A stretch of 64,000 bases of DNA from assembly GCF_003790525.1 (NCBI RefSeq), contig NZ_CP033635.1. The stretch is one strand, 5' to 3'. The stretch comes from Escherichia coli (GTDB taxonomy: Bacteria > Pseudomonadota > Gammaproteobacteria > Enterobacterales > Enterobacteriaceae). The position numbers were made by a program. The stretch's first letter is position 1. Every line of letters begins with the position of its first letter. Shown here piece by piece: positions 3,001 to 6,000 of the stretch.

Positions 3001-6000
3001 AAAGCATATCAGACGCCTGGGAAGGCGACACCAAAAGGAAGCTCTATGAGCGAAAAGCTACAGAAAGTGCTGGCGCGTGCCGGCCACGGCTCTCGCCGTG
3101 AAATCGAATCTATTATTGAAGCCGGTCGTGTGAGTGTTGATGGCAAAATTGCTAAACTCGGCGATCGCGTTGAAGTTACCCCTGGATTGAAAATCCGTAT
3201 CGATGGTCACCTGATTTCGGTACGTGAGTCCGCTGAACAAATTTGTCGCGTTCTGGCCTATTACAAACCGGAAGGTGAGTTGTGTACCCGTAACGATCCG
3301 GAAGGACGTCCAACGGTGTTTGACCGTCTGCCAAAACTGCGTGGCGCACGCTGGATTGCCGTGGGGCGCCTGGACGTTAATACCTGTGGTCTGCTGCTGT
3401 TCACCACCGATGGTGAACTGGCAAACCGTTTAATGCACCCAAGCCGTGAAGTTGAACGTGAATATGCCGTGCGTGTATTTGGTCAGGTTGACGACGCGAA
3501 ACTGCGTGATTTGAGTCGTGGCGTGCAGTTGGAAGATGGTCCGGCAGCCTTTAAAACCATCAAGTTCAGCGGCGGCGAAGGGATCAACCAGTGGTACAAC
3601 GTTACTCTGACCGAAGGCCGTAACCGTGAAGTTCGTCGTCTTTGGGAAGCGGTTGGTGTGCAGGTGAGCCGTCTGATCCGCGTGCGTTACGGTGATATCC
3701 CACTGCCGAAAGGTCTGCCACGCGGTGGCTGGACGGAGCTGGACCTCGCCCAGACTAACTATCTGCGTGAGCTGGTGGAACTACCGCCAGAAACCAGCTC
3801 TAAAGTTGCTGTAGAAAAAGACCGTCGTCGTATGAAGGCGAATCAAATTCGTCGTGCGGTGAAACGTCACAGCCAGGTCAGCGGCGGTCGTCGTTCTGGT
3901 GGACGTAATAATAACGGTTAATTTAAGTTAAGTATAAAATAAAGGCCCTGCGGGGCCTTTTCTTCATTTGAAGTATGATAAATAGTCGCAGTATTTTAAT
4001 TTAATTTCATACTTGCTTATGAATATTACCAGGAAATAGCCACATTACTATTTAATTATCTGAGATAAACTCAACGTCAAGAGGTGGGTTATGATTAGAT
4101 ATAGTGGAATATTTCTATCGCTGTTAATGCTTTCAGGTTGTGCAACCGAAGCATTGAAGAATGAACAAGCTGAAACTGTTATTACTGCGGGTAACAAGGC
4201 GGTTGCGGCGAATGCAAGTTTCTTTAAACAATACTATGCTTCTCGTGAAAACTTCCTTGTTAATTTCTATGCAACTAATCCGGATTGTGCACTGCGACCT
4301 GATTATACCATAGATATAGGCGGTGATGGTAATGGCGGAAAATTATGCCAGCGCCCTGGGCCAAATACAAAAAAAGTACAATTAGTCCCTTTCGAGAAAG
4401 AAAAATTACTGGCTTCAATGGAAGTCATTAATAGCATGAGCGCTTATGTAGAACTTCTGACTGAGGACATGGCAACGACAGAAAGTCAGCAAGTGGCATT
4501 ACTTAAACAGGCTCTGGATCACGCAAACAACGCACAAACACTACTTGGTATTTCACATAGCAAAGATTTAGCACAATCTGCAGCAGCGGTTAAAGATTTG
4601 GTAAATTATTTCAATGAGTTATATATAATAAAAGTCAATTCTGGAAAAATAGGCAAAACGGTAGATGAAAACTGGGTAAGACTTATAGGGAACATGACAG
4701 TTTTGCGTAATGATATTTATACAAAAAGCAATAAGATTGAAAATTATACCTTTGCGAATGTGCATGATAATATGTTTTATTATAATACGGCATCTAAAAA
4801 CGCTAAGAATACAGAGTTTAACACTCTGAAAAACAGGAAGGAGTTTCTAAGTTCAGTAATCAATGTGAATGAAACCAGGCTACAGGCATCGGCACCTGCC
4901 ATGCCCGCAATTGAGGCTTTAAATGCCTTTATAGATAAGGGTGATTATCTGAATAATTTATATGTTAATAAAACACGCACGGCAGCTGAACAAAAAAGGT
5001 TAAATGAGATATTGCGCGCACAGGTCATTAGTGGGTTAAAGGCGTCTGAGGGGCTGGCAAAATTACTTATTGCCAGCGGAATAATGTTATAGGAGGCTTT
5101 TTATGAACGATGTGCAAAATCGTAGAATACTGGCATTACTTGATATGCTGTATAATACCCTGGGCAATAAAACCACATGTAATGTTTGTCATAAATATTT
5201 TATCCATATCCTCACAGTTATGAACAACCTGACGATTAACTATGGTACTGAAACTTCGCCAGAGTTAGCAGGGATAAATTATGACGATGCTAATGCGCTA
5301 ATTACTGAACTGATATTATTTATTGAAGATGTTGACGCTGAGAATCATGAAACATATCAGAGACATTTCAATGAGATTATACGCATTCTGAATTTTGCTA
5401 TTGCCGCTTGAATATAATTATGATTAAAGCACCTCAAGAGGCAATCTTTTGAGGTGCTTTCCCTTAATAATCAATCCCTATTTGCGCCTTAACACCGGCA
5501 TCAAACGCATGTTTGATGGGGCGCAGCTCACTCACCGTATCCGCTAGTTCAAGAATATCCCGATGACAGCCTCGACCCGTGATAATCACCGTCTGTTGAT
5601 GTGGACGTTCATTTAACGCCTGCACCACTTCTTCCAGTGGCAAATAATCATACGCCACCATATAAGTCAGTTCATCGAGCAAAACCATATCCAGTGAAGG
5701 ATCTGCCAGCATTCGTTTGGCATGTTGCCAGACTTCACGGCAGGCGGCGGTATCAGATTCGCGATTTTGCGTATCCCAGGTAAAGCCCGTTGCCATCACC
5801 TGAAATTCAACGCCGTGTGGTTCCAGCAGATTTCGTTCGCCATTAGGCCAGGTGCCTTTAATAAACTGCACGACGCCCACTTTTTTTCCGTGACCAACTG
5901 CGCGTGTTGCCGTACCAAATGCTGCGGTGGTTTTGCCTTTTCCATTGCCGGTAAAGACGATGATAATACCGCGTTCATCCTGGGCCTGGGCCACACGGGC

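Follow-up and report, generated by a model that had tools for sequence, protein, structure and literature searches.

Llp of phage T5 and Cor of phages phi80, N15 and HK022 are outer-membrane exclusion lipoproteins which are non-catalytic, bind the receptor FhuA and belong to the non-essential cargo of the phage (bioRxiv 10.1101/2022.06.28.497910, the same work as PMC9586334; bioRxiv 10.64898/2026.03.26.714494). In the SitA/SitI loci of myxobacteria, a polymorphic toxin with a lipobox is followed by the gene for a small cytoplasmic immunity protein (PMC5562445, PMC8546572). In P2-like phages, the position between S and V (orf30) is one of three recognised moron regions (PMC6823313, PMC3091744), and the slots orf30, Z/fun and tin/old ("TO") hold accessory and often anti-phage cargo (PMC6823313, PMC3091744, PMC9519451). 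In this study, we describe a two-gene cassette that lies between the core genes rluB and cobO (also named btuR) in a 64,000-nucleotide stretch of Escherichia coli DNA (contig NZ_CP033635.1 of assembly GCF_003790525.1, hereafter the window) and that encodes a predicted outer-membrane lipoprotein of 333 amino acids (aa) and a non-secreted acidic protein of 102 aa. For comparison, Llp and Cor are about 60–80 aa in size, and the multi-allelic surface loci of E. coli, such as those of the O-antigen, of flagellin and of the loops of outer-membrane proteins, are kept by frequency-dependent selection. Comparison of the alleles indicates that the rluB–cobO locus is an old resident polymorphism, in which deeply diverged trans-species alleles coexist with a null state, and its products are a previously undescribed two-protein family, a novelty established by exclusion, since neither a family nor a fold nor a known system matched.

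The cassette resembles each of these systems in part. Like Llp and Cor, it encodes a predicted outer-membrane lipoprotein with no catalytic signature, and one of its relatives is cargo of a P2-like prophage. Unlike them, its mature lipoprotein has 316 residues, is all-helical in a low-confidence model and is paired with a 102-aa protein, whereas Llp and Cor are described as small products of single genes, lacking a cytoplasmic partner; moreover, PHROGs and Pfam searches revealed no similarity, and the Escherichia cassette is chromosomal and not phage-borne. With SitA/SitI it shares polymorphic loci and a lipobox protein directly followed by the gene of a small cytoplasmic partner. In SitA, however, the N-terminal part is conserved, the C-terminal toxin domain varies, and the protein depends on TraAB outer-membrane exchange, while in the cassette the C-terminal 40 residues are 72–98% identical between alleles against 42–60% in the middle, searches gave neither a toxin domain nor conserved catalytic residues, and in one mosaic allele the partner seems not to follow the variable region. 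The likeness to the P2 morons is one of position, in that the pair found in Buttiauxella sits exactly in the S–V slot, but defence cargo is documented for the other two slots and not for S–V, and the E. coli cassette lies outside a prophage. Lastly, the cassette is like the multi-allelic surface loci in its fixed site between core genes, in its trans-species diverged alleles, in recombination that breaks where the ends are conserved, and in a neighbouring core gene whose divergence is raised. Those loci encode known structures, and the cassette consists of a single lipoprotein with a cytoplasmic partner, with most strains in the null state.

Polymorphism at the rluB–cobO junction

The window is 100% identical to the corresponding part of E. 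coli SMS-3-5 (NC_010498.1, at about 1.885 Mb, reverse strand). The gene order is rluB (3046–3921), the gene of the lipoprotein precursor (4091–5092, plus strand, 333 aa), the gene of the acidic protein (5103–5411, plus strand, 102 aa) and the convergent cobO/btuR (5464–6054). The interval between rluB and btuR, about 1.5 kb with two genes in this genome, has a GC content of 0.365 over positions 3922–5463, which is 13 points below the 0.50 of the flanking DNA. In MG1655 the same core genes are 39 bp apart, with only a different small hairpin and no gene between them. A preliminary description of this stretch had given the positions and sizes of both open reading frames (ORFs), the richness in AT and the direct succession of rluB and btuR in K-12, and all of these were borne out. 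The 39-bp spacer of the empty state is unrelated to the intergenic DNA of the occupied state, and the entire intergenic region differs between the two.

The distribution of the cassette was surveyed in 5,426 complete E. coli genomes, the rluB–cobO junction being present in 5,422. It is carried by 1,234 of them (23%), always at the same site and with a median of one copy per genome, while about 4,190 genomes have the empty site. The pair is carried by a minority of strains and is missing from MG1655, and neither protein has a strong match to a characterised housekeeping family, so that both findings which would have spoken against the preliminary description are absent. Many carriers are human clinical isolates, and SMS-3-5 and many others are environmental or animal. 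The occupied sites fall into three allele classes: type A, which is SMS-3-5-like, encodes a lipoprotein of 333 aa in about 424 genomes and is divided into sub-types (about 96% and 94.5% identity at the nucleotide level); type B encodes one of 340 aa in 776 genomes, and type C one of 340 aa in about 42. Residues 1–65 of the lipoprotein are 100% identical between classes, but identity falls to 42–45% in the zone of the Cys66–Cys86 loop, where there is also a 7-residue indel, and is 56–60% in the helical body (residues 113–300) before it rises again to 72–98% over the last 40 residues; the small protein is 72–89% identical. Type C is a mosaic, since its body is its own (56% identical to that of type A), whereas its C-terminal 40 residues are 98% and its small protein 89% identical to those of type A. 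The divergence of the body between classes within E. coli is about the same as that to the alleles of Citrobacter (51–58%).

Synonymous and nonsynonymous divergence between these classes (dS and dN) was estimated by the Nei–Gojobori method, overall and in windows of 30 codons. For the lipoprotein, dS between classes is 0.93–1.3 overall and saturated in most windows of the body; because dS is near 1 or saturated, the allele classes are far older than E. coli. Between the same strains the dS of rluB is only 0.06–0.09, and it is 0.76–0.81 between E. coli and Citrobacter. The dN of the lipoprotein is 0.21–0.24 and its dN/dS 0.17–0.25, with values of 0.5–0.7 in codons 61–105 only, a region that largely coincides with the hypervariable Cys66–Cys86 loop and the adjoining indel zone as delimited from the allele comparison and dN/dS (codons 66–105, positions 4286–4405, plus strand). 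The small protein has a dN of 0.05–0.18 and, where dS can be measured, a dN/dS of 0.09–0.19. Purifying selection throughout indicates that both genes are functional and are not decaying DNA. Types A and B agree over their first 60 codons down to the synonymous sites, which places a recombination breakpoint inside the gene. On the other side of the cassette, the dS of cobO between strains with different alleles is 0.16–0.24, above that of rluB, and it seems from these values that this 3'-side core gene is hitch-hiking with the old alleles or that recombination tracts reach into it.

The same site is occupied outside E. coli. The pair lies between rluB and cobO in Citrobacter, with 52–55% identity to the E. 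coli alleles, and two alleles within Citrobacter have bodies of only 66% mutual identity; E. whittamii has an A-type at this site with 98% identity, and E. albertii a B-like type. Among species-representative genomes, the close family was found only in Escherichia. The GC content of the module is 12–20 points under that of its surroundings throughout the enterobacterial hosts analysed, Citrobacter and a prophage among them, so the low GC is a property of the module and not a sign of recent arrival. The borders of the cassette have no repeats, integrase, insertion sequence (IS), tRNA or other mobility genes. Of the proposal that this is a horizontally inserted segment of foreign composition, the atypical GC and the absence from K-12 and about 77% of E. 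coli stand, while the occupation of the same site in Citrobacter, E. albertii and E. whittamii, the lack of mobility scars and the saturated dS do not agree with it. For the empty state of K-12, a loss is at least as likely as an ancestral condition. In the type strain of E. albertii, NBRC 107761, the lipoprotein ORF ends after 244 codons (locus sequence 2898–3632) and the small gene is intact; this truncated copy is either a pseudogene or a sequencing error of the draft assembly.

Several records at this locus call for a comment. Copies of the cassette are annotated as "hypothetical protein" or "lipoprotein", and in some RefSeq genomes (e.g., NZ_CM166350.1) one of the two genes is labelled "amino acid kinase family protein", which looks like a mis-annotation because no family search supports that name. 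IS1 lies inside the cassette in at least two genomes, NZ_CP054353.1 (SCU-172) and NZ_CP032204.1 (AR_0013), and these insertions imply that the locus can be inactivated without obvious cost. The PLSDB "plasmids" CP054249.1, CP054253.1 and NZ_CP134663.1 are pieces of chromosome or a whole chromosome of 4.9 Mb; CP054249.1 holds trpD–trpL–rluB–cobO with many frameshifts and is the source of a spurious allele at 32% identity. That "fourth allele", on the "plasmid" pBone4_2, was rejected as a degraded B-type on a frameshift-rich fragment of chromosome in which rluB and cobO are also broken.

The non-coding parts of the occupied site are also conserved. Downstream of rluB, a terminator scan gave the hairpin AAAGGCCC-NNNN-GGGGCCTTT (3941–3960, plus strand), which is present only in the occupied form of the site and is kept in the cassette-bearing loci of both Escherichia and Citrobacter, while the empty site has another hairpin. 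It is followed by an AT-rich operon leader (3966–4090, plus strand) with the blocks TAGTCGCAG (3983–3991) and TTCATACTTG (4006–4015) and a ribosome-binding site (RBS), GAGGTGGG (4081–4088), 3–10 nucleotides 5' of the lipoprotein start. From Escherichia to Citrobacter the RBS is conserved and the two blocks are invariant despite the saturated synonymous sites in the genes, and TAGTCGCAG and TTCATACTTG probably have a regulatory role. A scan of the leader gave no promoter of the sigma-70 consensus, candidate sigma-E and sigma-70 promoters were rejected because spacing or consensus did not agree, and an Rfam search of the cassette including the leader gave nothing above threshold. Of the promoter-like leader claimed earlier, then, the conserved non-coding blocks remain and a consensus promoter does not, so that it is these blocks which carry the case for a promoter of its own. 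At the far end, RNA folding on both strands gave a bidirectional terminator hairpin with a 15-bp stem (5426–5460), with free energies of −22.2 and −19.0 kcal/mol and z-scores of −5.6 and −4.6 on the two strands; it lies directly before the stop codon of cobO/btuR at 5464 and is common to the cassette and this convergent gene. The bidirectional terminator in front of btuR had been noted in the preliminary description, as had the strong RBSs and the tight linkage of the two genes, and folding and inspection agree on each: the RBSs are GAGGTGGG and, for the small gene, AGGAGG (5091–5096), which overlaps the TAG stop of the lipoprotein gene, and the small gene starts 10 nucleotides after that gene ends.

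The lipoprotein and its cytoplasmic partner

The lipoprotein begins with MIRYSGIFLSLLMLSGC-ATE, a short, positively charged signal peptide with the canonical lipobox LSGC (codons 1–17, positions 4091–4141); the lipobox reads MIRYSGIFLSLLMLSG-C17, and the cysteine predicted to be lipidated is residue 17, which leaves a mature protein of 316 aa. The residue at +2 is alanine, and aspartate occupies +2 in none of the listed distant members; by the +2 rule of outer-membrane sorting in E. coli, we infer an outer-membrane location. Across 22 distant lipoproteins the only invariant residues are the lipobox Cys17, Cys66, Cys86 and Tyr119, and this alignment contains no conserved polar residue able to form a catalytic site. 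Hydropathy analysis of the mature protein gave neither a transmembrane helix nor a strongly hydrophobic hairpin; the C-terminal tail is mildly hydrophobic, and its best 19-residue window reaches 1.12, under the level expected of a transmembrane helix. An AlphaFold2 model built from 14 close homologues is uniformly helical with a single beta-hairpin at residues 73–97, between the cysteine pair, but has a mean predicted local distance difference test (pLDDT) of 43 and is unreliable. The Cys66–Cys86 loop and the zone adjoining it are the indel-rich region of the wide family too. With the caution that such a model demands, we read this protein as an elongated, non-enzymatic helical scaffold which may carry a disulfide-closed variable loop.

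The small protein has neither a signal peptide nor a transmembrane segment, and its isoelectric point (pI) is 4.78. Its AlphaFold2 model is an up-down four-helix bundle of high confidence (pLDDT 93.7, predicted template modelling score 0.86), for which Foldseek searches of the PDB, AFDB50 and BFVD returned generic helical bundles, none of them at E ≤ 0.001. In the close family of Escherichia and Citrobacter, Cys26, Cys29, His30 and His88 are invariant, giving a C-x2-C-H motif and a distant histidine (window positions 5178–5192 and 5364–5366). These four residues could form a Cys2His2 metal site, as judged from their conservation; in the distant partners only the first cysteine of the set survives. 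A Tat signal or lipobox was considered for the small protein and rejected, because the RR lies within the confidently modelled amphipathic helix 1; an aspartate in the h-region, the residues K-T-T at −3 to −1 of Cys26 and the absence of RR in the distant partners also speak against it.

Neither protein could be assigned to a family. The lipoprotein had no family match in Pfam, NCBIfam, PADLOC or PHROGs, the PHROGs matches being at the level of the signal peptide only (E 0.03–0.14). The small protein had no match in Pfam, NCBIfam, PADLOC or PHROGs and contains no helix-turn-helix (HTH), ribbon-helix-helix (RHH) or other Pfam domain. Profiles built from close or from distant members gave only noise against PDB sequences and no match in Pfam. 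Pfam and NCBIfam have an entry for neither family, and in PADLOC-DB v2.0.0, which includes the PD-T4, PD-T7 and PD-lambda systems, both proteins matched no family at E ≤ 1. The systems of Vassallo et al. 2022 are contained in PADLOC and gave no match, and the "lipoprotein" defence hit of that work could not be traced to a sequence. Searches of the accessible literature by accession, by gene neighbours and by concept found no description of the locus. Thus an outer-membrane lipoprotein, as predicted from its LSGC lipobox and Ala at +2, an acidic partner (pI 4.8) that is not secreted, and a pair that resembles no nameable family in Pfam, NCBIfam, PADLOC, PHROGs or the PDB are what the preliminary description had put forward and what these analyses return.

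Some specific identities were considered and set aside. A unimolecular spanin would have a C-terminal transmembrane helix, which the window value of 1.12 does not provide, and the prophage that carries the Buttiauxella pair has separate lysis genes. An alpha-helical pore former of the ClyA or colicin type was rejected for lack of a strongly hydrophobic segment and of a Pfam or PDB profile match. A type II toxin–antitoxin module was rejected since the large protein carries export and lipidation signals and the small protein lies downstream without an HTH, RHH or other Pfam domain. Immunity proteins of colicins and pyocins (Im7/Im9, PF01320, four-helix proteins of about 85 aa) had no Pfam match to the small protein, and no Im protein was among the top Foldseek matches.

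Distant relatives and their genomic contexts

When 1.84 billion representative proteins were searched exhaustively with a profile, only 59 matches resulted, about 40 of which are full-length lipoproteins of 324–357 aa with 19–26% identity. Their hosts are Buttiauxella, Raoultella/Klebsiella/Rahnella, Pantoea, Methylomonas, Chlorobiaceae and further GC-rich bacteria; a word-indexed protein search with the broad lipoprotein alignment added no members. With one exception, each distant lipoprotein examined is followed, 10–46 nucleotides downstream, by an acidic ORF (pI 4.3–5.0) of 96–107 aa without a signal peptide, and this pairing holds for the relatives in Buttiauxella, Raoultella/Klebsiella, Pantoea, Methylomonas and Chlorobiaceae. 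Of the partners, only that of Buttiauxella could be shown to be a homologue of the E. coli protein (E 2e-7). The exception occurs in one GC-rich relative, where the partner is 269 aa long (locus sequence 2171–2980) and combines a helical, Ala-rich N-terminal region with several transmembrane segments near its C-terminus, and hints that the small partner may work at the inner membrane. No third gene is conserved beside the pairs in about 10 contexts.

The contexts themselves are varied. In Buttiauxella the pair lies between gpS (tail completion) and gpV (baseplate) of a P2-like prophage, which is the orf30 slot; it is 20 GC points below its prophage, whose lysis genes are separate, LysC lying upstream of the pair. 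The gpS-like ORF beside this moron (locus sequence 5388–5762) has only 124 aa, matches an internal stretch of its PHROG profile and may have been truncated where the cargo joins. In Raoultella the pair shares an island with an integrase, AlpA, an IS, HicB, a weak AbiC match and PDC-S15, which PADLOC lists as a candidate defence gene. Another distant pair adjoins orphan pyocin DNase and immunity genes, SRAP, TacAT and IS elements; in this small cluster of conflict genes, a stand-alone ORF for a colicin/pyocin DNase domain (129 aa) and its immunity gene (85 aa) lie 2.5 kb upstream of the pair (192–839 and 168–815 in two loci), accompanied by SRAP, TacA/GNAT and IS genes. VapBC, Fic and a Y1 transposase are close to the pair of Methylomonas, and in Pantoea and Chlorobiaceae the surroundings are ordinarily chromosomal. 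A metagenome scan for further contexts found none. Carriage by mobile elements is real but uncommon.

Proposed function and rival explanations

For the function of the locus, we tentatively favour, at somewhat less than an even chance, an accessory envelope operon whose lipoprotein would give protection by binding against phage or another attack on the envelope, and whose alleles would be under balancing selection. After processing by Sec and Lsp, the lipoprotein would be delivered to the outer membrane. Its predicted N-terminal helix and its C-terminal tail are conserved, and its variable loop and diverged helical body would make up the working surface. This surface may bind an envelope or external ligand, most likely, by analogy, an outer-membrane receptor or porin or a component of an incoming phage. 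The lipoprotein would then occupy or shield a target in the outer membrane or periplasm, or bind a component of the phage or toxin, with a range that depends on the allele, and the binding would protect the cell as that of the phage-encoded exclusion lipoproteins does. Negative frequency-dependent selection by the attackers would keep both the ancient alleles and the empty state. The translationally linked four-helix partner would stay in the cytoplasm and probably serve the precursor, before it is exported or while it is, as its holder or chaperone or as a regulator of its dosage; among the alleles, this protein goes with the conserved C-terminal segment of the lipoprotein rather than with the variable body. 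We infer from the pattern of alleles and null state of the lipoprotein, together with the pairing, a situation typical of an interface of conflict at the envelope. The wider formulation, in which the cassette is a new envelope-level immunity system made of a lipoprotein with exchangeable, anciently diversified surfaces and a dedicated cytoplasmic partner, which would stop phage from entering or block toxins aimed at the envelope and which balancing selection would maintain at a fixed core site in Escherichia and Citrobacter, with occasional capture by prophages or islands, is possible but on the whole doubtful.

A number of observations weigh against the protective operon. Neither protein shows homology to any exclusion or defence protein in the PADLOC and PHROGs searches, and the model of the lipoprotein, with a pLDDT of 43, is too poor for a comparison of folds. 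The dN/dS never exceeds 1 and thus gives no sign of positive selection. The role given to the 102-aa protein is ad hoc, as Llp and Cor are small and have no partner; linkage alone could explain why this protein tracks the adjacent C-terminal segment, and between the more distant small partners and that of E. coli no homology could be detected (hhalign probability 0.3%). The link to mobile elements and to defence comes from a handful of contexts (about ten). Phage carriage is rare, with a single prophage instance, and the family was found in 0 of 50,697 phage records with three queries, in none of IMG/VR and on no genuine plasmid. In Escherichia and Citrobacter the neighbours of the cassette are core genes and not defence genes; a search for the defence-island neighbours that the preliminary description had thought worth checking came back empty in E. 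coli, where core genes form both flanks.

Four other explanations have to be considered. The plainest is that the lipoprotein is an ordinary accessory protein of the envelope, a structural or stress scaffold, whose divergence comes from weak constraint and from the import of the intergenic segment among Escherichia and Citrobacter by way of the conserved flanks. Much of what was found would suit it: dN/dS is below 1 throughout, the synonymously identical N-terminal codons of types A and B show that recombination acts within the locus, the raised dS of cobO (0.16–0.24) is consistent with imported tracts, the flanks in Escherichia are core genes, and the cassette is readily lost or broken, as seen in the IS1 insertions and the truncated E. 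albertii copy. Weak constraint, however, fails to explain why three classes with the divergence of genera persist intact under purifying selection in one species, and gives no reason why a prophage moron slot and integrative islands should have taken up the pair; we therefore regard this explanation as rather unlikely, though not negligible. If the cassette were a recently acquired islet in a K-12-like rluB–btuR junction, which concerns its origin only, one would expect the GC 13 points below the flanks and the absence from MG1655 and most E. coli, but not borders devoid of direct repeats, integrase, IS and tRNA, an intergenic region that differs as a whole between states, occupation of the site in three more species or genera, where leader and terminator are conserved, alleles whose divergence far exceeds the age of E. 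coli, or a low GC intrinsic to the module. A recent origin is largely refuted by these findings and appears very unlikely.

The two remaining explanations assign the lipoprotein to conflict with other bacteria or with a host, and both appear improbable. The pair could be a toxin and its immunity, with a lipoprotein toxin delivered by vesicles or by contact and the small acidic protein as the cognate immunity protein or antitoxin, for which SitA/SitI are the precedent of a lipoprotein toxin with a downstream cytoplasmic immunity gene (PMC5562445, PMC8546572). The gene order, lipoprotein before small acidic cytoplasmic protein with a coupled RBS, would fit, as would the highly diverged alleles, a carriage of 23% that resembles the frequency of bacteriocins, and the distant pairs that adjoin toxin–antitoxin modules or pyocin DNase and immunity genes. 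But no toxin domain, catalytic residues or hydrophobic hairpin of a pore former was detected, the C-terminus is the conserved part, which is the reverse of polymorphic toxins, and type C combines an A-like small protein with a body only 56% identical to that of type A, against cognate recognition of the variable part; there are no arrays of orphan immunity genes, the median is one copy per genome, and the small protein is unlike folds of the Im7/Im9 type. The evidence as a whole leans away from an enzymatic toxin. No machinery for outer-membrane exchange is known in Enterobacteriaceae. A factor of host interaction, that is, a surface lipoprotein serving as an adhesin or in serum resistance or immune evasion, with its loop and body shaped by host immunity, would agree with a predicted outer-membrane lipoprotein that has a hypervariable disulfide loop on a conserved scaffold and with the numerous carriers from human clinical sources, and Bor of phage lambda, a prophage moron lipoprotein giving serum resistance, offers a precedent. 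It is less easily reconciled with relatives in bacteria that do not cause disease in animals (Methylomonas, Chlorobiaceae, Pantoea and Buttiauxella), or with SMS-3-5 and the many other environmental or animal carriers, and it leaves the cytoplasmic partner unexplained.

If the protective operon that we tentatively favour is true, the cassette would be a novel kind of barrier, at the surface or in the periplasm, against phage or toxins. About a quarter of E. coli would possess it, many clinical isolates included, and current tools for finding defence systems would miss it; it would then have a bearing on host range in phage therapy and on competition between strains. Regardless of function, this study defines two protein families that are both outside Pfam and NCBIfam, and the rluB–cobO locus offers a natural, long-term, trans-species allelic polymorphism at a junction of the core genome, in which the built-in null allele makes selection on an envelope protein directly testable.

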